Positions 8,406-63,900 of a stretch of 64,000 bases of DNA are shown here, piece after piece. The notes below the pieces were generated by a model. It saw nothing but the letters and a program-made list of their open reading frames with translations. It made no database searches and was not told the DNA's origin. The stretch lies in the IMG/VR virus record IMGVR_UViG_3300021599_000885, one strand, 5' to 3'. The translations under genes and the position numbers were made by a program. Source of the stretch: a virus. How positions within the stretch are numbered: position 1 is the stretch's first letter; each line of letters opens with the position of its first letter.

Positions 8406-11400
8406 TTATTTATGATTCTGGTCGTCAACCTTTCTAGAAAGTTCTTTAATAGCCTCAACCAGTAGAGGAACAATCTTATGGTAGTCAACCGCAAGGTAAC
8501 CATTATCTCTAGTTGTGACTGCCTCTGGTAGAATCTTCTCAATTTCTTGAGCGATAAGACCAACATCATGACCAGTCTTGTTGGACTTTTCATTCCAATC
8601 AAATGTGTTACCACTGATTGATAGAACCTTTTCTAGTGGATTATCAATTCTAGTGATGTTATCCTTCAATCTTTCGTCAGAAGACCAGAAAGCAGTAATA
8701 TCATCAGTTACGCTCAAGATACCAGTGATTGTTGTATTAGTTTGGATTGCAACAAGAGTGCTTCCACCATTTGCATTGAGTTTTAGATTTCCAGACTGAG
8801 TATCAATAGTATTGTCATCAGTAACGGCAATTTTAATGTTACCAAAACTACCAGCGGAAGAAACTAGAGTAGATGAAGAATCAATAACTAGATTTCCACT
8901 TACGGTTAGGTTTCCAGTTACATTAGCATTTCCACCAACATTCAAGTTCTTCGCAATACCAACACCACCACTAACTGTGACTGCACCAGTACTGAAATCA
9001 GTTGACTGTGTAGTATCAGTTACTTTTAGTGGTGCAGAAATAGTAGTTGTATCATTAATTTTAACTTCTTTGTTGAACTTAACTGGACCATCAAACTGAG
9101 ACAGAACAGTACCAGAGTTTCCACCTTCAACTAGAAGTCTTTGCTTAACAATAACTTCATCAAATACAACACTCAAACTAGAAGGATCTTCACCAGTTAT
9201 TGTTGGTACTGGAATATCAAATACTTCTTCTTGACCAGTAGCAGAGTTAATCTTCTTATTACCAATGAAGAAGTCGCCAACGCTGTTCATACCAGTATAA
9301 ACAACGATACCGCAGTTCTTCTCTTGTGCTTGTGCGAGGTAGTCTTCCTTATCACTCAGACTCTTGACCTGAACTTGTGGAAGTGCAGTTGAATAGTTAC
9401 CTGGACCATAACCAAGATATTCAAATGTATGTCCAGAAGCACGTAAGTATGAAGGTCTACGGAACTCAATAGCCTTAGGTGTGATCTTCTTAATAAGAGC
9501 ACCACCAGAATGGTTTTGCTTCAGAGTTCCTAAAGCACCACGAATAACACTGACTTCATTGTTACCAGAACCAGCAAGAGTGCTGGTTACAACTCTCATA
9601 ATCTCATCATCAACTTGGATATATGAACCAAGTTCAAATCTATTGGTAGTTGAAATACCAGAGTTTGTAGTTTTAATATGAAGTGTAGTCTGATTGGAGA
9701 TATTAGACTGAAGAATAGCAGTCTCGTTTCCGTAGAAGAAGAATCCTCTTGCTCCAAGATTCTCACCATCAACATCAGAGGTCTTATCATTGGAAGATAG
9801 ACCATGCTTCAACAGATACTTAGGAGAAGTAAGTGATGCACTCGTCTTAGCACTAACTGTTGTGGTTGTGATACCAGTAACTAGATAGTCGCCTAAGTTT
9901 TGATCTGTAGAGTTCTTAACGGTGAGTCTATTACCAACCACAAAACCATGAGGTTCAGACATTGTAAAGGTGGTAATACCAGTTGCTGAAGTAAATGCTG
10001 AAGAAGAAACAGTTAGTTCAGGTGCAATGTTCAGTAGATATTGCCCTTGAACAATTCTTGGATCCTTATCAGTAATAGCAATAGCAACTTGATTTTTAGC
10101 AGGAACACCAGTAATACGATAGTATCCACCAGCAGTTGTTCCAATACCTGTGATTTGAACGGTATTACCAATAACTGTTGAAATACCAGCAGTTGTTACA
10201 GTTAAACCAGCGCCTACTCCACCACCAATTCTTCCAGTATCAAAGTCTAGTTCTTCGCCATTTGTATAACCAGAACCACCAACAGTAATATCTACAGAGG
10301 ATACAGCATTACCAGCAACTGTTACAGTGGCGGTAGCGCCATCCCAAGTTGATGTTCCATTATTAAAGAGTTTTACATTATAGTAAGTTCCATTGGTATA
10401 TCCACTACCACCAGTAAAGGAACTATAAGTTACAATTCCATTAAAACCATGCTCTCTAGCGAATGTTAAAGTTGCAACTCCAACAGTTGCACTTGGGAAT
10501 GAAGTTGTAACTCCAGTGATAGGAAGACCAATACCAAGAGCTGGGAGTAAAATATCAACAGTTTCTCTTGTAAGACTCTTCTTAAGATCATCAGTTACAA
10601 CATCGCCAATAGGAGATCTCTTAGCGTATGTTTTACTTGAGTTTGGATTATCACTGATATTATCTCTATCCAACTGTGGATATAGATCTTTAACATTTTG
10701 ACTATAGGAATGTCCAGTGAATTCAGTTTCAACAGTATTACCAGCATTTAACACATACAAGTGATAAACACCATCTTGAACATCCTTAATATATGGAGAG
10801 ATGACCTCGTTTCTATAAACATAGAAGTTCTCATTCCAATCATTTCTTTCTAATCTTGGAAGAGCAGTTGTTCTACTGCTTGTATCATTTGTAAATGAAC
10901 CAGTAGAATGAGTTATACCATAAACATCTGCTGTTGAGTGAGTAAATGTCTTATCATCAACTACAGAAGCAACAGTAAATACTCCATTATATCCCTTATT
11001 AACAGTTCCAGCAGTGTTTCCAGTGCTGGTTACATTTCTGATGATAATCTTCTCACCAACTCTTACATTATGTGGTAGTTCTGTAATAACAGTAACTGTA
11101 GAAGAACTCGTTGAGCAGGTGCTGATGAATCTTGGGTTTCTGTTATAATCATAGTCAGATGTTGTAATTCCAGTAGCAGTAAAGTCAGCGTTAGATCTTG
11201 CTCCAGTAGTGCTGGACTCCTGAATAACAAATCCTTCTTCTGGATCCTTTGCATTATCAAACTCTTTTGGAACTACAACTCTAAACTTATAGAGTTTCTC
11301 ATCAAGACTTCTTGGATCTTCTGTTCTATTAAAGAATGATGGATTTGATGCAGAACCAAGAGTTCCAGTTCCTAGAGTATTAAATGCTGTGTAGATAGCA

Positions 11401-13655
11401 TTATTATGGGATGAATGAATAAACCAATTGTTATTTGCAGCATCAAACTGAATAGGTGAACCAATTTCACCAGCAGCCTTATCACTTACTCTACTAATAA
11501 CTTTAATATTCGTTCCACCATATAGTGTAATGAATGCACTATTCTCAGCATTCGTTGCTGAAGATGCTATCTTAATTTGAGTTGAAGACTCTTTAATAAC
11601 ATAATAAATGGTGTGTGGATTAATATTCTCTGGTAGGTCTCCACTATCACTGATGAGTAGAATCTTTTCACCAGTTAGTAAGTTATGTGTTCCAATAGTC
11701 AGAACGCTAGATGAAACGCTACTTACAGAGTATTGTTTAAATGAACTAGATGTTCCTAGAGCAGAGGTAATACCAGATGTGCTAATGGCATTATCAACCA
11801 TTAGGATATTTGCACTGTAGGTAGTTCCAGATCCAACGAACGATAGTTGATCGTTCAGTTTAGCACCAACTCTATAACCTTGAACAAGAACTGGTGGAGC
11901 AATGTTCTTATCATTGTAACCATAAAGATATAGATGGCTTGAAATACCAACAGAAGTTGTTAAACCAACATCTAGTTGTACCCAGTCAATACTCTCTTCT
12001 GTCGCTACAATTGCTTTTGGTGTAATAACAGAAGTAATAAATGCTTTATTGTCCTTCGCAAATGCTTCTGCCTTAAATCCTTCTGCGTTCAGTGAGAACT
12101 GACCAAAGTTTGAGTTAGAGTTTGTGATACTGAAGTCAGCACCAGTTCTACCATCAAAGTGATATGAAAAACCAATAGCAAATACAGAGACGACCTGAAT
12201 AAAGGCATCGTTCGAACCTTTAATATGACTAGATTCCCATCCAGTTCTATAGAGAGCATCAGAGTCTAGGTGATAAACTTTATTAGAATCTGTAGATGAA
12301 GATTCACTTGAAAGTGATGCACCAGTTACTTTAGAAACCGTAATACCTTCATACGCTCTAGAAGACTCATTATACTTAACAAATGCTCTGTCGTCTTTCT
12401 GTAGAGAAACAGCAGTAAACTGAGCAACAACCATCGAACGGAAACCAGATGCCTTAGCACCATCGGCATGAAGACCGTTCATACCATAAACTGAACGCAA
12501 GGAACAGTTAAAGATATATGGAGAAGCACCACCAACAGTATCAGTCTCGATAGTAACTGTTGCTCCAGAAGCACTAGGAGAAGCAGGAAGATTGTTTCTT
12601 ACAAATGGTAGTAGATAAGTAAACTGAGTTTCGCTGCTTACACTTTGAACTGTGGTTGATACATTATAGTCATCAACACTTACACCTTTAACTTTGATAG
12701 GTGTACCAGTTGTAAGACCATGTGCTGTAGATGTAGTAACTGTAATAACACTACCAGGAGTGAAACTATCTCCAGAAATAATGGTAGAGATATTAACTGG
12801 GTCAGCAGCAAATGCGCCAACAATTTCCCACTCAGAACGCTTCTTAGCAAAACCTAGTGGTTCAGCTGGCCACTTCTGGTCAATATTTCTGCCAGTTTCC
12901 GAATTAAATGCATTCGAAAGCTTGCTATAATACATGTCGAGGTCTGTAATGGAATATCCAGTAGGGATATTCACACCATCAGCATACTCAAAACAAGTTA
13001 GTTTGTGGTGAGAGAATGTTGGTTTTGACTGATTACCAGAACCAAAGTTTGATGCATCAGTATATACTAGACCACTCTGGTCACCATCAAAGATAGAAAA
13101 CTGCCAGAAGTAACAAGCACCTGTGATTCTGAAAATAGAAGAACCTGCTACATTAGTATCAGTTGGGTTTGGTACATACTTAGGACGAATCTTAGTCTTT
13201 CTAAGGTCTAAACCAACAATTGAAGTACCTCTAGGTACAACAACACCACCATGAATACTATTAAACTTATAAAGAATATTTTCTTGCTGCGTTAGATCAA
13301 ATACTGAAGATGATGTAAGAGTTAATTCTGTAGATGCTACGGTCTCTGAACCAGCTGGAGATACGGCAGTAGCAGTTCCACTTACATCTTTAATAGCATA
13401 TCCAGGTCTATTATCAATGACGTGTTCGCCAGGAAATAAAAGAATTGTAGTTTTCTCTACAATATCATTATCACTTCCCCTCAAATATGAGAATCTCGCT
13501 GCCTCTAGCAGTGCTCTCTGAATCGTTTTGAAAGGTTTTGTTAACGAATTACCTTGATTCTCGATAGAATCGGTAGCATCAAGGTCACTTGGGTTAACAT
13601 AGAGAATACGCCCTTCAGTATTCTTTATGAAATTTTCCAGTTTGTTTAAAGGCAT
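8406..13655 (-). CDS. large virion structural / tail fibre protein with C-terminal intramolecular chaperone (peptidase S74) domain
   Basis: 1749 aa; GNSLTKPFKTIQRAL, SGHTFEYLGYGPGNYS; C-terminal SDERLKDNI...GLIAQEIEKILPEAV...LVEAIKEL; TAAATA at 13688-13693. Confidence 0.85.
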   Translation of the reverse strand: MPLNKLENFIKNTEGRILYVNPSDLDATDSIENQGNSLTKPFKTIQRALLEAARFSYLRGSDNDIVEKTTILLFPGEHVIDNRPGYAIKDVSGTATAVSPAGSETVASTELTLTSSSVFDLTQQENILYKFNSIHGGVVVPRGTSIVGLDLRKTKIRPKYVPNPTDTNVAGSSIFRITGACYFWQFSIFDGDQSGLVYTDASNFGSGNQSKPTFSHHKLTCFEYADGVNIPTGYSITDLDMYYSKLSNAFNSETGRNIDQKWPAEPLGFAKKRSEWEIVGAFAADPVNISTIISGDSFTPGSVITVTTSTAHGLTTGTPIKVKGVSVDDYNVSTTVQSVSSETQFTYLLPFVRNNLPASPSASGATVTIETDTVGGASPYIFNCSLRSVYGMNGLHADGAKASGFRSMVVAQFTAVSLQKDDRAFVKYNESSRAYEGITVSKVTGASLSSESSSTDSNKVYHLDSDALYRTGWESSHIKGSNDAFIQVVSVFAIGFSYHFDGRTGADFSITNSNSNFGQFSLNAEGFKAEAFAKDNKAFITSVITPKAIVATEESIDWVQLDVGLTTSVGISSHLYLYGYNDKNIAPPVLVQGYRVGAKLNDQLSFVGSGTTYSANILMVDNAISTSGITSALGTSSSFKQYSVSSVSSSVLTIGTHNLLTGEKILLISDSGDLPENINPHTIYYVIKESSTQIKIASSATNAENSAFITLYGGTNIKVISRVSDKAAGEIGSPIQFDAANNNWFIHSSHNNAIYTAFNTLGTGTLGSASNPSFFNRTEDPRSLDEKLYKFRVVVPKEFDNAKDPEEGFVIQESSTTGARSNADFTATGITTSDYDYNRNPRFISTCSTSSSTVTVITELPHNVRVGEKIIIRNVTSTGNTAGTVNKGYNGVFTVASVVDDKTFTHSTADVYGITHSTGSFTNDTSSRTTALPRLERNDWNENFYVYRNEVISPYIKDVQDGVYHLYVLNAGNTVETEFTGHSYSQNVKDLYPQLDRDNISDNPNSSKTYAKRSPIGDVVTDDLKKSLTRETVDILLPALGIGLPITGVTTSFPSATVGVATLTFAREHGFNGIVTYSSFTGGSGYTNGTYYNVKLFNNGTSTWDGATATVTVAGNAVSSVDITVGGSGYTNGEELDFDTGRIGGGVGAGLTVTTAGISTVIGNTVQITGIGTTAGGYYRITGVPAKNQVAIAITDKDPRIVQGQYLLNIAPELTVSSSAFTSATGITTFTMSEPHGFVVGNRLTVKNSTDQNLGDYLVTGITTTTVSAKTSASLTSPKYLLKHGLSSNDKTSDVDGENLGARGFFFYGNETAILQSNISNQTTLHIKTTNSGISTTNRFELGSYIQVDDEIMRVVTSTLAGSGNNEVSVIRGALGTLKQNHSGGALIKKITPKAIEFRRPSYLRASGHTFEYLGYGPGNYSTALPQVQVKSLSDKEDYLAQAQEKNCGIVVYTGMNSVGDFFIGNKKINSATGQEEVFDIPVPTITGEDPSSLSVVFDEVIVKQRLLVEGGNSGTVLSQFDGPVKFNKEVKINDTTTISAPLKVTDTTQSTDFSTGAVTVSGGVGIAKNLNVGGNANVTGNLTVSGNLVIDSSSTLVSSAGSFGNIKIAVTDDNTIDTQSGNLKLNANGGSTLVAIQTNTTITGILSVTDDITAFWSSDERLKDNITRIDNPLEKVLSISGNTFDWNEKSNKTGHDVGLIAQEIEKILPEAVTTRDNGYLAVDYHKIVPLLVEAIKELSRKVDDQNHK

Positions 13656-14288: not shown

Positions 14289-14376
14289 TAGAAGTGGGTG
14301 GATTCGAACCACCTCAAAGCCGCTAATCTGGCGGAAAGAGTTTATAAGACTCCTCTGACTACCAAGTCTCACTTCC
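14289..14376 (-). tRNA. atypical tRNA, UAU anticodon (nominally Ile), long variable arm
   Basis: GGAAGTG/CACTTCT acceptor, GACT-TGGT-AGTC D arm, GGAGT-CTTATAA-ACTCT, CCGC/GCGG V arm, GGTGG-TTCGAAT-CCACC. Confidence 0.75.
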
Positions 14377-14784: not shown

Positions 14785-14813
14785 ATTATAGGGGGTCTGG
14801 GTCCTGGTGTCAA
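14785..14813 (-). promoter_or_regulatory. sigma70 early promoter for small genes and tRNA cluster
   Basis: TTGACA-N17-TATAAT. Confidence 0.85.
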
Positions 14814-14824
14814 GGGGTCTAGGC

Positions 14825-14854
14825 AAAAAAAGAGAGGGTGCTAAGACCCTCTCT
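14825..14854 (-). terminator. intrinsic terminator
   Basis: AGAGAGGGT-CTTAGC-ACCCTCTCT followed by U-run. Confidence 0.85.
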
Positions 14855-14856
14855 AG

Positions 14857-14925
14857 TAACCACCAACTCATCTCTCCCACCACAGAGAGGGTCTTCATTC
14901 CCAAAGATACAAGGATTTGAAAGAC
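14857..14925 (-). ncRNA. candidate structured RNA, copy 1 (repeat of 56726-56795)
   Basis: own promoter and terminator; two hairpins; 58/59 nt identical to copy 2. Confidence 0.65.
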
Positions 14926-14931
14926 TTGATT

Positions 14932-14960
14932 ATTATAAAGGATTATTTGGGGATTGTCAA
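14932..14960 (-). promoter_or_regulatory. sigma70 early promoter driving ncRNA copy 1
   Basis: TTGACA-N17-TATAAT consensus, ~6 nt upstream of the element. Confidence 0.9.
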
Positions 14961-17550: not shown

Positions 17551-18432
17551 TTATGTTAATCCTGCTCCAAATATTACAAATGTATTAGACCCTACACACA
17601 AAATTGTACATACTCCATATTGTGCTAATGTTCTGTTTCCTGTATTTGCCGTTCCTGCTGAACGTAAAGTAGTAGATGCTCCTTGAGTAATTGTTTGATT
17701 ACTACCAGAATTATTATATATAGACACCGCATCTCCAACATTAAACACTGAGTTTGGAACAGTAACTCCACCAGTAGTTATTGATATATGCTTTCCAACA
17801 TCACCAGATACCAAAGTGTATCCTGTTGTTTGGGAATTTTGAGGAATTGTTGATGGTCCAGCAACACCTTGTGCACCCTGTGCGCCAGTAGCACCTGTGG
17901 AACCTTGAGCACCTTGAGCACCAGTAGCACCTGTGGAACCTTGAGCACCTGTAGATCCTTGTGCTCCTTGAGCACCAGTAGCACCTGTGGAACCTTGAGC
18001 ACTAGAACCTGTTGCACCCTGTGCACCTGTTGCTCCTGTACTTCCTTGTGCTCCAGTAGAACCTGTTGCACCCTGTGCTCCAGTTGCTCCAGTAGAACCT
18101 TGAGCACCTGTTGAACCTATACTACCTTGAGTTCCTTGAGCACCAGTAGCACCTTGAGCACCTGTAGATCCTTGAGCACCAGATCCAGTGGCACCTTGAG
18201 CACCTGTAGATCCTTGAGCACCAGCGGTTCCTTGAGCACCAGCGGTTCCTTGAGCACCAGATCCAGTGGCACCTTGAGCACCTTGAGCACCAGTAGTACC
18301 TGTGGAACCTTGAACACCTTGTGCTCCAGGGTCTGGTATTCGTTGCCAGGCAGTCCCATTCCATTGCCACCTACGCCCATTGGCGACATAATAATCGTTT
18401 AAACTAGGGCTGGATGGAAAATCTAGCGCCAT
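17551..18432 (-). CDS. collagen-like fibre protein
   Basis: [10 protein letters not shown]-domain, G-A-Q/G-S-T triplets, shared C-domain; TAAATA at 18452-18457. Confidence 0.85.
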
Positions 18433-20528: not shown

Positions 20529-21301
20529 TATACAAGACCAGCTCCACTAATGAAAAAAGTATCGGAAGATACGCAAATTACCGTAGCAATTCCTCTTTGA
20601 ATTAAAGATTTATTTCCTGTAGTAGAAGTTCCTGCAGTGTACATAGTAACACCAGATCCTTGAACTATTGATCTGGTTGCATTTGTGTTATTTACTATGG
20701 TTACAGTATCTCCAGCAGAAAATACTCCAGATGGAACGGTGATACTAATTGCTGCAGTAATTGAAATAATTTTACTATTATCTGATGCTACTAATGTATA
20801 ATTTGAAGACTTTTCATTAAGAGTTAGAGTTCCAGGTGAACCCTGTACACCTTGAGCACCTTGAGCACCAGTAGCACCTACAGCACCCTGAGCACCAGTA
20901 GCACCTTGAGCACCTATAGTACCTTGAGATCCTGATGCACCTGCAGCACCCTGAGCACCAGTAGCACCTACAGCACCCTGAGCACCAGTAGCACCAGTAG
21001 CACCTTGAGCACCAGCGGTTCCTTGTGCTCCTACTGAACCTTGTGCGCCAGTAGCACCTGTGGAACCTTGAGCACCAGTAGCACCTGTGGAACCTTGAGC
21101 ACCTTGAGCCCCTACAGCACCTTGAGCACCAGCGGTCCCTTGAGCACCTTGAGCACCAGTAGCACCTGTGGAACCTTGAGCACCTTGTGCTCCAGGATCA
21201 CCAAGTCTTACCCAAGCAGTTCCATTCCAACGCCAAGTAGCACCATTAGCGTTATACTCATCATTTAAAGTAGGACTAGCAGGAAAATTTAATGCAGCCA
21301 T
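20528..21301 (-). CDS. collagen-like fibre protein
   Basis: [11 protein letters not shown]-domain, GAQ repeats, shared C-domain; TAAATA at 21319-21324. Confidence 0.85.
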
Positions 21302-23017: not shown

Positions 23018-24577
23018 TTACAACAATCCGCTACCAGAAATTACAAATTCGTTACTTGCTATACATAAAACCGTTGCCAAACCTCTTTGCTGTAAAGTTC
23101 TATTGCCAGTATCAGAAGTTCCAGGAAGTCTTAATGTTGTAGAAGTACCCTGTGTGATTGTTTGTGAAGAAGCGGAGTTATTGTAAATTAATACGGTATT
23201 TCCTGCAGTAAAAGTATCAGAAGGAACAGTAACTCCTCCTGCAGTTATACTTATAATAGTTCCAGCGTCTCCTGCAACTAAAACATATGATGAAGATTTT
23301 GTGGTTACAGTTAGAGGTCTTGTTCCATCGGATCCTTGAGCACCTGCCGTACCTTGAGCACCTTGAGCACCAGTAGCACCCTGACGACCTTGAGCACCCT
23401 GTGCTCCTACTGAACCTTGAGCACCTATAGTACCTTGAGCACCTATAGTACCTTGAGATCCTGCGGTTCCTTGAGCACCTTGAGCACCAGTAGTACCTTG
23501 AGATCCTGATGCACCTGCGGTTCCTTGAGCACCTTGAGCACCAGTAGCACCTTGAGCACCTATAGTACCTTGAGATCCTGATGTACCTGCCGTACCTTGA
23601 GCACCTTGAGCACCTGCGGTTCCTTGAGCACCTTGAGCACCTGTAGATCCTTGTGCTCCTACTGAACCTTGAGCACCAGTAGCACCTTGAGCACCTGTAG
23701 ATCCTTGTGCTCCTACTGCACCTTGAGCACCTTGATAACCTTGTGCTCCTTGTGGTCCAGCAGTACCTTGAGCACCTGTAGATCCTTGTGGTCCTTCAAT
23801 AGCATTGCTTGCCGTAACCCATTGAGATGTGTCTGCATCTTCATAGTAAACGTAAAGGTTACCAGACTCACTATTCCACCAAAGATCGCCTGGTTGTGGT
23901 GATGATGGAGATGATGTTGATATTTGTACTAGTGTATCAGAACTATTTGCAGATACCCATTGAGAACTAGAACCATCATTATAATATACTTTTAAATCTC
24001 CAGTATCACTTTCCCACCATAAGTCTCCAATATTTGGAGAACTTGGAGCAGTATCGCTAATAGTTACAGTCTCACTACCACCAGATGTTTCAACCCACTG
24101 TTCACTATTTCCATCCTGATAGTAAAGATATAGTTCACCTACATCACTATCCCACCAAAGATCTCCCTGACTTACTCCACTTGGTGGTTCTGCACTAACA
24201 GTAACTCTGGGAGATATTGTAATTGTAGAAATAGATCCACTTGCAATGGCAGTTACACCAGTTCCTACAAAGTTTAGTTTTGATATACTATTGGCAGTTC
24301 CAACAAGAAATCCTTCGTCAAAGATACTTATTCCACCAGGTTGTAAACCAGGCTGTTCCTGCCAGTATCTATCATAAGTTGTACCGTTATTAACGGTAAT
24401 CAACTGATAATACTTATCAGCAAGTGGTATTAATTTTTCTCCAACATAACCTAAGTTGGGTTCGACCTCACCTGGATGAACATATAAATGACGGTCTGAA
24501 GATAACGCTTCAGTTCCTGCTATCTTTACTCTACCACTTATATATCGCTGTGTCGGCTTTCTTGTATTATCTGCCAT
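23018..24577 (-). CDS. collagen-like fibre protein with three GDLWW repeats
   Basis: 3x (P..GDLWW.S..G.L..YY.D....QWV), GAQ collagen, shared C-domain. Confidence 0.85.
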   Translation of the reverse strand: MADNTRKPTQRYISGRVKIAGTEALSSDRHLYVHPGEVEPNLGYVGEKLIPLADKYYQLITVNNGTTYDRYWQEQPGLQPGGISIFDEGFLVGTANSISKLNFVGTGVTAIASGSISTITISPRVTVSAEPPSGVSQGDLWWDSDVGELYLYYQDGNSEQWVETSGGSETVTISDTAPSSPNIGDLWWESDTGDLKVYYNDGSSSQWVSANSSDTLVQISTSSPSSPQPGDLWWNSESGNLYVYYEDADTSQWVTASNAIEGPQGSTGAQGTAGPQGAQGYQGAQGAVGAQGSTGAQGATGAQGSVGAQGSTGAQGAQGTAGAQGAQGTAGTSGSQGTIGAQGATGAQGAQGTAGASGSQGTTGAQGAQGTAGSQGTIGAQGTIGAQGSVGAQGAQGRQGATGAQGAQGTAGAQGSDGTRPLTVTTKSSSYVLVAGDAGTIISITAGGVTVPSDTFTAGNTVLIYNNSASSQTITQGTSTTLRLPGTSDTGNRTLQQRGLATVLCIASNEFVISGSGLL

Positions 24578-49616: not shown

Positions 49617-49854
49617 TTCTTTTGCCTCGGGAAACTACTATTCTTTTCCTTGACTTAAAGGAAAATTCAAAATAGATGGTAACTTCCCGATTCAGAAAGC
49701 AAACCATCTTTTCGAAGATGATATGGAATGGTTGCGTTTGCTTTCTCTTACCTCCATTAAGCAGTAAATCAACGCCACGGTTTACGTGACTCTTGTTTTT
49801 ATTTATGTTATGACTTGATGACTTGTTGTTCTTTGAGGAATCTGATTGTGTCAA
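49603..49854 (-). CDS. hypothetical protein
   Basis: NRGV.L.L, REVT.YFEF; start uncertain. Confidence 0.55.
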   Translation of the reverse strand: MTQSDSSKNNKSSSHNINKNKSHVNRGVDLLLNGGKRKQTQPFHIIFEKMVCFLNREVTIYFEFSFKSRKRIVVSRGKRNVSS

Positions 49855-50050
49855 CGGAACCTCCTAGCTTTTTATCATCACAAATAACCTGAGGGAAGGT
49901 AGAACCTTCACCAAATTCAGAATAGAATTCTTCTCTAGTAAAGTCCTCACTAAGAGTATACACGACAAACTGAGTGTTTGTCAACTCTAAGACTTTTTTT
50001 ACTTTGTCGCAATATGGACAACCTTCTTTTGAGTAAACTGTAAAATTCAT
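49808..50050 (-). CDS. nrdC: glutaredoxin
   Basis: VYSKEGCPYC, TFPQV, LGG. Confidence 0.9.
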   Translation of the reverse strand: MNFTVYSKEGCPYCDKVKKVLELTNTQFVVYTLSEDFTREEFYSEFGEGSTFPQVICDDKKLGGSVDTIRFLKEQQVIKS

Positions 50051-55246: not shown

Positions 55247-56608
55247 TTAGTCTTTAGAAGCAATAATTAAGTCAACATATTGGACAGCAAAGTCCATTGC
55301 TGTACCTGTAAAAGATGCTGAACCAGACCAAGATGGATTAGTAAATCCGTGTCCGTGAGAGTTTCCACCACCAGTTGATGTGGTATTTGGGCTGAGACCA
55401 ACAATTGTACCACCACCGGCAAATCCTTGAGAACCACCTCCACCATTATCAAGCAAAAATTGCCCAGATGTTGATGAGTGGTTGTGGGATGGCATCTCTG
55501 AAGTGGTTAGTGTAGTATTACTTACAGAACCGCCAGAGTTAGATCCAGAAACCGAAACAGAACCAGATGGTGTCCTAGAAGCAAATACACTTGTAAATGC
55601 GGTCGTACCACCAGAACTTGCAGATCCACTTACTACTCTAAGTGCTTTATTATTATGAGTTGTTTGTTTGGTCCAACCAGTAGGTGCTGCTGTCTGTTGG
55701 AATAACATCAAAGTGCCTGATGCAAAAGTTATAGCGCCAGAAGTACCTTGAGATCCAACAGCACCCTGTGCACCTACAGCACCTTGAGCACCTGTAGATC
55801 CTTGAGCACCTTGAGTACCTGTAGATCCTTGAGCACCTTGAGCACCTATAGTACCTTGAGATCCTGATGTACCTGCGGTTCCTTGAGCACCTTGAGCACC
55901 TGTGGAACCTTGAGCACCTTGAGCACCTGTGGAACCTTGAGCACCTTGAGCACCTGTAGATCCTTGTGCTCCTACTGAACCTTGAGCACCAGTAGCACCT
56001 TGAGCACCAGTAGCACCTTGAGCACCTGTGGAACCTTGAGCACCAACTGTGCCTTGTACACCTGTAGATCCTTGAGCACCTACATCACCTTGAGCACCTT
56101 GAGCACCTACATCACCTTGAGCACCTGTGGAACCTTGAGATCCTGATGCACCTGCGGTTCCTTGAGCACCAGTAGCACCTTGAGCACCTTGAGCACCTAT
56201 AGTACCTTGAGATCCTGATGTACCTGCGGTTCCTTGAGCACCTTGAGCACCTTGAGCACCTTGAGCACCTTGAGCACCTTGAGCACCTGTAGATCCTTGT
56301 GCTCCTACTGAACCTTGAGCACCAACTGTGCCTTGTACACCTGTAGATCCTTGTGCTCCTACTGAACCTTGAGCACCTTGAGCACCTTCAGCACCTGTAG
56401 ATCCTTGAGCACCTTGATCCCCTACAGCACCTTGAGCACCTTGAGCACCTGTAGATCCTTGAGCACCTTGAGCACCTGTAGATCCTTGAGCACCTTGAGT
56501 TCCAGGTGTTCCCTGCCTAACCCAAGATGTTCCATTCCATATCCATCTGGAGTTACTAGATGTAAAAATATCATTTACTGATGGACTATCTGGAAAGTTT
56601 AGAGCCAT
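55247..56608 (-). CDS. collagen-like tail fibre with collar-like C-terminal domain
   Basis: [10 protein letters not shown]-domain; long GAQ run; F.Q..APTGW, TLT..EMPSH.H, VQYVD.IIA.KD; TAAATA at 56636-56641. Confidence 0.85.
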
Positions 56609-56664: not shown

Positions 56665-56693
56665 ATTATAACCAATATCATACATAAAGTCAA
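56665..56693 (-). promoter_or_regulatory. sigma70 promoter
   Basis: TTGACT-N17-TATAAT immediately after terminator. Confidence 0.7.
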
Positions 56694-56695
56694 AT

Positions 56696-56726
56696 AAAAA
56701 AAGAGAGTATAAAACTCTCCTTTTTT
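56696..56726 (-). terminator. intrinsic terminator after ncRNA copy 2
   Basis: A6-GGAGAG-TTTTATA-CTCTC followed by U7. Confidence 0.75.
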
Positions 56727-56795
56727 AACCACCAACTCACCTCTCCCACCACAGAGAGGGTCTTCATTCCCAAAGATACAAGGAATCTTGAAGAC
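56726..56795 (-). ncRNA. candidate structured RNA, copy 2 (repeat of 14857-14925)
   Basis: GTCTTCA/TGAAGAC and CCTCTCT/GGAGAGG stems; 58/59 nt identity to copy 1. Confidence 0.65.
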
Positions 56796-56819
56796 CTTAA
56801 AGAGAACGTACACCCATCA

Positions 56820-57089
56820 TCAAAGATTAGTTAACCAAATGTTTTCAGCAAGTTTTGCTTCGCCAGTTATAATTGCAGATTCTAGATCTGAAATATCTTC
56901 TCCAGAATCTACAATTTCTTGGTCAGTAACAACAAGTTTAAGGTGTCCAACATTACGATCAATATTAGATTTTAAGTCTTTGGAGGGCGTTTCTCCACCA
57001 TCTAATTTTTCAATAGCATCTTCAATCACCCAAACACTATCTTTAGCTACAGTAATTGTTTGCAAAATTTGTTCTTGAGTTCTTGCCAT
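56820..57089 (-). CDS. hypothetical protein
   Basis: A.DSV.VI...RNV.HL..V; AGGAG RBS. Confidence 0.75.
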   Translation of the reverse strand: MARTQEQILQTITVAKDSVWVIEDAIEKLDGGETPSKDLKSNIDRNVGHLKLVVTDQEIVDSGEDISDLESAIITGEAKLAENIWLTNL

Positions 57090-60956: not shown

Positions 60957-63900
60957 TCACGAATTTTCCAATATATCCAATCTTGATTTTAATACATCAA
61001 CTTCCTCTGATAATTCCTTCACTGCATTTACAAGAACTGGAATCATATGATCTGATGTCAGTTTGAGATGCTCTGGATCATTTGAGTCTACAATAACAGG
61101 ATTTTCTCCTTCTGCTTCAAGGACATTCTGGGCACTGAATCCATACCTACGCTTTCCTTCTATGTCCTTTAATTCATCAGTATCACGGTCCTTAAAGGCA
61201 TATTCAATTGGAGTAATATTATGAAGGAAACCTCTACCATGAGGAACAGGTCCAAAAATGCACTTGTCACGGCAATCAGAAACTGCTGTCCAAGCAACCT
61301 GGATAAGAGCACATGCATGACTGTTGTTACCCATAATGATGTAATTGGATTCTGTTGTAACATTACAAAGTCCTGTAGAACCCGTTCCAGCATTTTGTCC
61401 GAAGAAAAGATTATTAGTTCCAGTGGTGTTGCAGTAACCAGCATTACGTCCAATAAAGGTGTTGTTGCATCCACTGGTGTTGCAGATACCAGTATAAGCT
61501 CCAATGAAGATGTTAAAGGTTCCACTGGTGTTGCGGAATCCAGCACATTGTCCAATGAAGTTGTTAAAGGCTCCAGTGGTGTTGCATTGACCGGCACTAA
61601 ATCCAATAAAGTTGTTATTGGATCCAGTGGTGTTGCTGAAACCAGCACATCGTCCAGCAAAGAAGTTAAAGGATCCACCGGTGTTGCAGTAACCAGCACT
61701 AAATCCAATAAAGTTGTTATTGGATCCAGTGGTGTTGCCGAAACCAGCATAAGCTCCAATGAAGGTGTTATTGGATCCAGTGGTGTTGTTGGATCCAGCA
61801 AGTCGTCCAATGAAGTTGTTGCAGGTTCCAATGGTGTTGGATTGACCAGCATTAGATCCAAAGAAGTTGTTGTTGGCTCCACTGGTGTTGCATCGACCAG
61901 CAAATCGTCCAAAGAAGTTGTTGTAGGATCCACTGGTGTTGCTGAAACCAGCACATTGTCCAGCAAAGAAGTTATGAGTTCCACTGGTGTTGCATCGACC
62001 AGCATTAGATCCAAAGAAGTTGTTGTTGGCTCCACCGATGTTGGATTGACCAGTATAAGCTCCAATGAAGTTGTTATTGGATCCAGTGGTGTTGCTGAAA
62101 CCAGCACATCGTCCAATGAAGTTGTTGCAGGTTCCAGTGGTGTTGCTATAACCAGCACTAAATCCAATGAAGTTGTTGTTAGTTCCAGTGCTGTTGTATC
62201 GACCAGCATAATTTCCAATGAAGTTGTTGTAGTTTCCAATGGTGTTGCGGAATCCAGCAAATCGTCCAAAGAAGTTGTTGTTAGTTCCAGTGCTGTTGCA
62301 TCGACCAGCACATTGTCCAATGAAGTTGTTGAAGGATCCAGTGGTGTTACAGGCACCAGCACCTTGTCCAATAAAGTTGTTATTGGATCCAGTGGTGTTA
62401 CAGGCACCAGCACATTGTCCAGCAAAGAAGTTAAAGGATCCACTGGTGTTGGATTGACCAGCACAATAACCAGCAAAGAAATTATTGAGTCCAGTGCCAC
62501 CAGTTCCTGCTTCTGAACTGTAAATGGTCCCACAAGAACCACTTAAAATGAATTCTCCACCGCCACCGACACCCCCTCCTGCAGGTCCTTGAGCACCTTG
62601 AGCACCAGTAGCACCAGCGGTTCCTTGAGCACCTTGAGCACCAGATCCAGTGGCACCTTGAGCACCTGTAGATCCTTGAGCACCTGTAGATCCTTGAGCA
62701 CCTTGAGTACCTGTAGATCCTTGAGCACCTGTAGATCCTTGAGCACCTTGAGCACCTTGAGCACCTTGAGCACCAGATCCACTGCCACCCTCTCCTGCAG
62801 GTCCTTGAGCACCTTGAGCACCAGTAGCACCTGTAGATCCTTGAGCACCAGTAGCACCTGTAGATCCTTGAGCACCAGATCCAGTGGCACCTTGAGCACC
62901 TGTAGATCCTTGAGCACCTGTAGATCCTTGAGCACCTTGAGCACCTGTAGATCCTTGTGCTCCTACTAAACCTTGAGCACCAGTAGCACCTTGAGCACCT
63001 TGAGCACCAGATCCACTGCCACCCTCTCCTGCAGGTCCTTGAGCACCTTGAGCACCTTCAGCACCAGCGGTTCCTTGAGCACCTTGAGCACCAGATCCAG
63101 TGGCACCTTGAGCACCTGTAGATCCTTGAGCACCTTGAGTACCTGTAGATCCTTGAGCACCTATAGATCCTTGAGCACCTGTAGATCCCTGAGCACCTTG
63201 AGCACCAGATCCAGTGGCACCTTGAGCACCTGTAGATCCTTGAGCACCTTGAGCACCTTCAGCACCAGCGGTTCCTTGAGCACCTTGAGCACCAGATCCA
63301 GTGGCACCTTGAGCACCTATAGATCCTTGAGCACCTGTAGATCCCTGAGCACCTTGAGCACCAGATCCAGTGGCACCTTGAGCACCTTGAGCACCTTCAG
63401 CACCAGCGGTTCCTTGAGCACCTTGAGCACCTGTAGATCCTTGAGCACCTACATCACCTTTATCACCAGTCCTAGCAAAGGTGATGATAACGTCTTCACT
63501 ATCACTGAATGAAGAAGCACTACCAGATACATATCCACAACTGACTGTGAAGTATCCAGTGTTCTCAGTCACACTAGAGATAGTGAACAGAGCAAAGTCG
63601 TCAGCATTCAGTCTATTAGAAATTCTAAAGTGACCCTTAATAGTAGAAGTAGAGTCATCAATAGTTCTTAAGAATGACTGAATATCTGTAGAGTTATCGT
63701 CAACATCATCAATGTATAGAACCGTAGCAGATGAAACTGTAGCGTTATTGAGCTTTAGTATTCCAGTTCCTGGGTCACTAGCAGTAATGTTTGTAGAGAA
63801 AGTATAGTCAAATGTAGCGCCACCGAAGTTACCATCAGCTCCTTGTGCTCCAACAGCACCCTGTGCACCTTGAGCACCAGCAGTTCCTTGAGCACCAGCG

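Follow-up and report, generated by a model that had tools for sequence, protein, structure and literature searches.

An undescribed structured RNA family of T4-like cyanophages, usually encoded upstream of nrdC and present in two displaced copies in an uncultured virus

Several described systems resemble parts of the locus analyzed here, an RNA gene found twice within a 64,000-nt stretch of viral DNA (IMG/VR record IMGVR_UViG_3300021599_000885), hereafter the window. With the trans-acting small RNAs (sRNAs) of phages and prophages (review PMC12197685) it shares a self-contained unit of about 100 nt with its own sigma-70 promoter and a rho-independent 3' end, carried by a phage and presenting conserved single-stranded elements on stem-loops. 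It differs from them in lacking a sequence or Rfam relationship to any, and in its exposed motif, which is a repeated GGUGG. GcvB-type sRNAs have G/U-rich seeds and provide, for the G/U-rich elements of this RNA, a mechanistic analogy only; in cyanobacterial hosts Hfq-type sRNA biology is different.

Cis-regulatory motifs of cyanophages include glnA, manA and wcaG (Weinberg et al. 2010, as cited in PMC12197685). Terminating riboswitches and attenuators, also found in cyanophages, have in common with our locus a structured leader and an intrinsic terminator upstream of a metabolic gene, but here no alternative pairing is conserved, the gene is set off from the terminator by a promoter, different genes are found downstream, and the Rfam models are unmatched.

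On the other hand, T4-like phages carry composite terminator/early-promoter cassettes, termed PeSLs (Arbiol et al. 2010, PMC2839356; Comeau et al. 2014, PMC4122927), which have been proposed to drive gene shuffling in these phages (PMC2839356, PMC4122927). Shared with PeSLs are a near-perfect TTGACA-N17-TATAAT promoter beside stem-loop terminators, the location at the edges of hyperplastic regions, and the association with indels and gene shuffling, an association that fits the two displaced copies of the window. However, PeSLs are short and occur many times per genome, whereas here promoter and terminator enclose a covarying 70-nt RNA that is normally present as a single copy. The small stable RNAs C and D of phage T4 are encoded beside tRNA genes and have no known function. 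Like them, the RNA described here is a small non-coding RNA of a T4-like phage, with one copy of the window (copy 1) just upstream of a tRNA cluster; unlike them, it has its own promoter and terminator instead of being processed from a tRNA precursor, and its family is usually found beside nrdC, the likeness being one of description only.

The RNA gene and its relatives

The first-pass annotation of the window had proposed, for the locus of copy 1, a structured RNA preceded by a perfect TTGACA-N17-TATAAT promoter, followed by an intrinsic terminator and devoid of any credible ORF. Reanalysis bore out this description (Table 1). The -35 (TTGACA, 14960-14955) and -10 (TATAAT, 14937-14932) boxes are separated by a spacer of 17 on the minus strand, the first base of hairpin 1 (G14925) lies 6 nt past the -10, and the terminator comes after hairpin 1, hairpin 2 and a G/U-rich tail, so that the predicted RNA measures about 100 nt. 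A 61-aa frame starting with TTG (14904-14719) extends across the terminator and the second promoter but is not coding, as homologues carry +2-nt indels, and variants of hairpin 2 differing by +2 nt rule out a conserved reading frame. A frame starting from an ATG within hairpin 1 was also discarded, being broken by +2-nt indels and stops in homologues. Refolding returned hairpin 2 as it had been described (CUCUCU/GGAGAG with a GUGGUG loop). Hairpin 1 was recovered as a hairpin but not with the 7-nt loop assigned to it, since the apical loop comprises 9-11 nt (UUGUAUCUUUG) and is the conserved UUGUAWCUUUG.

Table 1. Coordinates of the two RNA copies and of associated features in the window.
Feature	Coordinates	Strand	Remarks
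Copy 1 promoter, TTGACA-N17-TATAAT	14932..14960	minus	sigma-70-type, 12/12 matches
Copy 1 hairpin 1	14891..14925	minus	7-8 bp outer stem, then internal loop and 3-bp inner stem
Copy 1 hairpin 2	14871..14890	minus	directly adjoins hairpin 1; stem CCUCUCU/GGAGAG(A), loop GUGGUG nearly invariant
Copy 1 G/U-rich single-stranded tail	14855..14870	minus	variable linker, then conserved UGGUGGU (alignments)
Copy 1 intrinsic terminator	14825..14854	minus	9-bp stem (14854-14831), 6-nt loop, T7 to 14825
Second perfect promoter	14785..14813	minus	outside the RNA; serves DUF7294, Phd-like ORF and tRNA cluster
nrdC (glutaredoxin)	49811..50050	minus	usual gene downstream of the RNA in relatives
Copy 2 RNA	56695..56796	minus	repeat search and model R1; core 56722-56796
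Copy 2 hairpin 1	56760..56795	minus	
Copy 2 hairpin 2	56740..56759	minus	
Copy 2 tail		minus	
Copy 2 terminator	56695..56727	minus	
Promoter TTGACT-N17-TATAAT	56665..56693	minus	right after copy 2 terminator; serves collagen-like tail-fibre gene 56608-55247

The promoter of copy 1 is no chance match, because base composition predicts only 0.04 perfect (12/12) N17 promoters for the window, which contains five, each of them on the gene-sense strand. Their first -35 bases are at 1348, 14813, 14960, 16298 and 59012 (minus strand), co-oriented with the genes, and two further promoters, at 56693 and 54066, score 11/12. The perfect TTGACA-N17-TATAAT promoters look like the early promoter set of the phage. 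Copy 1 taken alone folds weakly (z = -1.46 with respect to shuffles), so the case for the RNA rests on comparison with its relatives. Copy 2 folds far better than its shuffles (z = -4.56).

Homologues were collected by exact-motif scans of IMG/VR (55, 61 and more than 104 loci) using two anchors, one in hairpin 1 and the other in hairpin 2 plus the tail, and therefore each part of the RNA was checked in a set unselected for that part; thus, the G/U-rich tail was judged in the set gathered via the hairpin 1 loop, which is unbiased for the tail. The apparent invariance of the anchored loops derives in part from this mode of collection, and the two anchor sets check each other. A scan of IMG/VR for a G-to-A variant of hairpin 1 yielded only five loci, all of them already in the set.

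In an alignment of 43 diverse sequences (A3), 94% of the cells were paired under the proposed structure, compared to 46-60% in a control in which the partners were slid by 1-3 columns. Six pairs were changed on both sides, and none of 500 shuffles equaled the observed score. RNAalifold, unaided, found the same two hairpins with five compensatory pairs. Both hairpins covary: changes in hairpin 1 include G-C to A-U, C-G to U-A and, in the inner stem, C-G to U-A, with additional compensatory changes in the copy of Synechococcus phage S-SRM01, whereas in hairpin 2 pair 44-59 is split between C-G (27 sequences) and U-A (15-16), and pair 46-57 shows four double changes. The variants of the hairpin 2 stem are CCUCUCU/GGAGAGG, CCUUUCU/AGAAAGG, CCUCUUC/GAAGAGG and the extended CACUUCUCU/GGAGAGGUG. 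Three unpaired elements are nearly fixed, namely the hairpin 1 loop UUGUAWCUUUG, the hairpin 2 loop GUGGUG and the tail UGGUGGU, the linker before the latter being freely variable across homologues. That the stems change in a compensatory manner while the loops stay fixed suggests that selection acts on the fold of the RNA and not on DNA identity.

Two further candidate elements were rejected, a pseudoknot joining the tail to the loop of hairpin 1, since the linker varies without compensation, and a Shine-Dalgarno-like GAGGUGA after hairpin 2, which is not retained in the CCUUUCU/AGAAAGG variants.

The family is present in at least 120 IMG/VR contigs and in one cultured phage, the freshwater Synechococcus phage S-SRM01. 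A search of the window with covariance model R1 detected exactly two copies, with 95.8 bits for copy 2 and 85.3 bits for copy 1, the next match scoring 17 bits. In four large virus contigs, of which three (207-236 kb) are rated complete, the same model found one copy apiece, and it found a single copy in S-SRM01 (MW015081, 10976-11053; 66 bits), a member recovered only through the covariance model, blastn having missed this phage. No homologue was found upstream of nrdC in the marine isolates Syn33, S-IOM18, S-T4 and S-SKS1, nor in the single-cell virus AG-345-L05. A search by exact match for the 19-nt core of hairpin 1 in 185,579 bacterial and archaeal species genomes revealed no true copy, only 10 single matches in unrelated MAGs, all attributable to chance.

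The comparison with Rfam gave no matching family, in agreement with the novelty put forward for this RNA from the start. At gathering thresholds over the whole window the element was unmatched, and with Rfam 15 at permissive E-values the element and six homologous loci gave chance matches only, which differed between homologues; the families covered include T-box, glnA, manA, wcaG, Yfr1/2 and small ribozymes. A blastn search with the element of the window against 50,697 phage records matched nothing. The RNA is absent from the text of the S-SRM01 genome paper (PMC8557907), and the family from that of a 2025 review of phage sRNAs (PMC12197685). These results show that the RNA family is real, undescribed and restricted to viruses, its carriers being T4-like cyanophages (Kyanoviridae) of an uncultured freshwater and estuarine group, together with S-SRM01.

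Genomic context and the two copies in the window

Among 71 unique contexts, a promoter-like site precedes the RNA in 67 and is perfect in 57, its -10 always ending 6 nt before hairpin 1, and a T-run follows the RNA in 65. A promoter is located 3' of the terminator in every context examined, with the motif TATAAAT before the next gene in 62 of the 71. This motif is the core of T4-type late promoters, and it is also found upstream of structural genes in the window. The promoter that follows the terminator is a perfect sigma-70 promoter at copy 1 and TTGACT-N17-TATAAT both at copy 2 and in contig L092.

In 106 of 119 instances (89%) the RNA is followed by nrdC, whose product in the relatives is an 80-aa glutaredoxin carrying a CPYC motif, and in 10 by another gene. 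The gene upstream is highly variable across contexts. With nrdC downstream and variable genes upstream, the RNA therefore normally lies where a variable region meets the nrdC block.

Some contigs depart from this layout. L116 (4364-4484, minus strand) carries the only homologue seen without a terminator and without TATAAAT before nrdC; there, a Shine-Dalgarno-like AAGGAG and then the start of nrdC come after the RNA, which would therefore be a true 5' leader. In L078, L087 and L095, a 212-aa ORF (MS(L/I)VASKS...) with its own TATAAAT occupies the place after the RNA terminator where nrdC usually begins, and could be an inserted mobile gene. In L003 (12582-12650, minus strand), and also in L113, a truncated RNA gene (55.5 bits), which keeps its promoter and hairpin 1 but only half of hairpin 2, is fused directly to Gly-rich coding-like sequence, which looks like a recombination scar within the RNA gene.

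In the window, nrdC has no RNA element directly upstream, and its start lies two bases beyond the stop codon of a 212-aa ORF (50691-50053). The C-terminus of this ORF resembles that of the ORF preceding the RNA in L072, L106 and L116, where the intergenic RNA cassette lies between the two genes; the cassette is missing there from the window. The two copies of the window precede unrelated genes, each with a terminator followed at once by an early promoter (Table 1).

No sigma-70 promoter was found upstream of copy 2, which is preceded by an 89-aa ORF ending at 56820. Its terminator stem is flanked by an A-run before and a T-run after, and could therefore terminate in both directions. Contig L092, collinear with the window, carries the RNA about 4 kb upstream of nrdC, with a promoter as on copy 1 and a downstream flank as on copy 2. 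Because of this collinearity and shared flank, copy 2 is the positional counterpart of the usual copy. The sequence comparison indicates that copy 2 has lost its promoter here and that inserted genes part it from nrdC; it may be a remnant, or be made by read-through only. The tail-fibre-like genes of the window contain many tandem repeats with a 9-nt period (collagen-like Gly-X-Y) and with a 45/51-nt period, in regions 17800-18400, 20700-21300, 23200-23800, 55800-56600 and 61300-63600; among these genes is that of a 1749-aa fibre with a C-terminal Peptidase_S74 chaperone domain (8406-13655).

By the same comparison, copy 1 appears as an extra, ectopic copy before an operon of DUF7294, a Phd-like ORF and tRNAs, which has kept its promoter and acquired an unusual terminator. 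The second promoter, between the terminator of copy 1 and the next ORFs, makes the RNA a separate unit, and S-SRM01, which has no RNA at the syntenic site, keeps this promoter there. The two ORFs within 14759-14389 (minus strand) encode a DUF7294 protein (64 aa) and a homologue of Phd/YefM-like antitoxins (57 aa; below the Pfam cut-off, phrog_375) with no evident toxin partner; the pair is also found in S-SRM01. Further downstream, ARAGORN reports an 88-nt tRNA-Ile at 14289-14376 (minus strand; anticodon TAT, position given as 31). With the Rfam tRNA model at gathering threshold, only the Met and Leu tRNAs next to it are recovered; this call may correspond to an unusual or degenerate tRNA.

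Proposed role and rival explanations

We favor, with a probability of about 0.6, a stand-alone sRNA that would be made early by the host polymerase and would act in trans via its exposed G/U-rich elements, a reading that the first-pass annotation had kept as a fallback and that the comparative data favor. What is found at the locus is a short non-coding unit bounded by its own promoter and terminator, as in stand-alone sRNAs, and independent of any one downstream gene. Host RNA polymerase with its primary sigma factor would initiate from the consensus promoter, some 6 nt ahead of hairpin 1, a promoter type from which the RNA is expected to be expressed early and strongly, and the RNA's own intrinsic terminator would end transcription to leave a product of about 100 nt. 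This product would fold into two adjacent hairpins with covarying stems and display the three conserved unpaired elements. The G/U-rich elements would then pair in trans with C/A-rich sites in host or phage mRNAs or, alternatively, the repeated GGUGG motif would hold a host or phage RNA-binding factor. Either mode could apply, and the data do not separate them. When the three exposed elements were scanned for duplexes with 110 translation-start regions of the window, only the RNA's own antisense rose above shuffled controls. The close linkage to nrdC could also point to a role in cis.

Possible, though doubtful, is that the RNA works as an early decoy, in which the twin GGUGG elements, exposed in the loop of hairpin 2 and in the 3' tail, would sequester a host protein that binds RNA, some component of defence, or host RNAs by their 3' ends. 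If this were true, a host function would be disabled during takeover, and the RNA would represent a new class of counter-measure RNAs in cyanobacterial phages.

The locus had originally been interpreted as a riboswitch or attenuator upstream of the tRNA cluster. In such a device, a two-hairpin domain would act as sensor and the junction would pair with the 5' arm of the terminator to allow read-through into nrdC in most phages or, here, into the tRNA operon. This interpretation arose from a 12-nt complementarity, and this is indeed present in copy 1: AAGACCCTCTCT (14895-14884) is the exact reverse complement of AGAGAGGGTCTT (14854-14843), the 5' arm of the terminator. To assess it across the family, 58 unique full-length homologues were folded both whole and cut just before the 3' arm of the terminator. 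In the cut transcript of copy 1 the junction pairing was preferred (-25.2 vs -16.3 kcal/mol). Across the family this pairing is not conserved: copy 1 is the extreme case (-8.9 kcal/mol), the gain in copy 2 is nil, and letting the terminator 5' arm pair upstream yields under 1 kcal/mol in 45 of the 58 and 3 kcal/mol or more in only four. Fifty-six of the 58 fold as hairpin 1, hairpin 2 and terminator. The 12-nt complementarity is found in copy 1 only, and the commonest variant in IMG/VR (GACCACUUCUCU) lacks any such complementarity. Because antiterminator pairing is not conserved in homologues, the outcome that the first-pass annotation itself had set as counting against function, an attenuator role is unsupported, and the terminator/antiterminator geometry of copy 1 is a local accident and no riboswitch.

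A cis-acting attenuator in the family at large is unlikely as well. The conserved order of promoter, structured RNA, terminator and gene, the frequency of nrdC as the next gene and the covarying two-hairpin domain that could serve as sensor agree with it, as do the strong alternative pairing of copy 1 and the leader-like arrangement of L116; moreover, the 5' arms of the terminators are always purine-rich, making weak pairing with the pyrimidine-rich 5' arm of hairpin 2 possible. However, besides the lack of conserved pairing, the promoter that follows the terminator in every context examined implies that the gene is not read only through the leader, the nrdC of the window has no element directly upstream while both copies precede unrelated genes, the class of the downstream gene is inconsistent, with 10 instances before other genes, and no Rfam riboswitch or T-box model matches.

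It is also improbable that the element is just a DNA-level mobile promoter/terminator cassette of the PeSL type, mediating recombinational shuffling in T4-like genomes and with an RNA devoid of function of its own. In favor of this, the element borders a hypervariable region and has genes of many kinds upstream, and the terminator of each window copy adjoins an early promoter, which is the PeSL layout (PMC2839356, PMC4122927). Recombination is further suggested by L092, in which the copy 1 promoter and the copy 2 downstream flank occur together, by the truncated copy of L003 fused to a Gly-rich frame, and by the ectopic duplicate in this genome. Against it, PeSLs are numerous in each genome, whereas the RNA is single-copy in four near-complete genomes and in S-SRM01, and PeSLs have no conserved transcribed core, in contrast to the 70-nt core with compensatory stems and fixed loops observed here. 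By analogy, shuffling of the PeSL type plausibly moved the RNA gene to its present positions, but it leaves the covarying core and the single-copy habit unexplained.

Two other explanations are very improbable. The put elements of phage HK022 consist of two hairpins just after an early promoter, through which the polymerase then resists terminators. A similar cis-acting RNA, modifying RNA polymerase so that early transcription passes its own and later terminators, might fit about 70 nt of two adjoining hairpins right after a strong early promoter and before a terminator, but a fresh promoter after every terminator would be redundant if read-through were the purpose, a terminator straight after an antiterminator would be purposeless, and copy 2 has no promoter. 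CRISPR repeats ending in AUUGAAAC are known, and a decoy against host defence, either as a CRISPR-repeat mimic (a solitary repeat unit or RNA anti-CRISPR) or as a mimic of antitoxin RNA, finds some echo in the 35-nt hairpin 1, with complementary ends and finishing in ...GAAUGAAGAC, loosely like those repeats, and in a phage-only gene with its own strong early promoter, but the matches to the 19-nt core in the 185,579 genomes were single and in no case formed arrays (exact match only), the covarying stem closes the whole of hairpin 1, and its 3' half is conserved and not spacer-like.

Significance for cyanophage biology

To our knowledge, cyanophages have yielded very few known non-coding RNAs so far, and this kind is not among them. 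The counts of nrdC linkage, the family-wide test of the antiterminator and the displaced and duplicated state of the gene are new here. The RNA gene is strongly conserved across a large set of uncultured T4-like cyanophages from freshwater and estuaries and, judging from its promoter sequence, its product is probably among the first and most abundant transcripts of the infection. As the cultured phage S-SRM01 carries it, detection, pull-down and mutation of the RNA are possible in a real phage-host pair. Its fixed site at the border between the hypervariable region and nrdC, together with its displacement and duplication in this genome, makes it a marker for cassette-driven gene shuffling.
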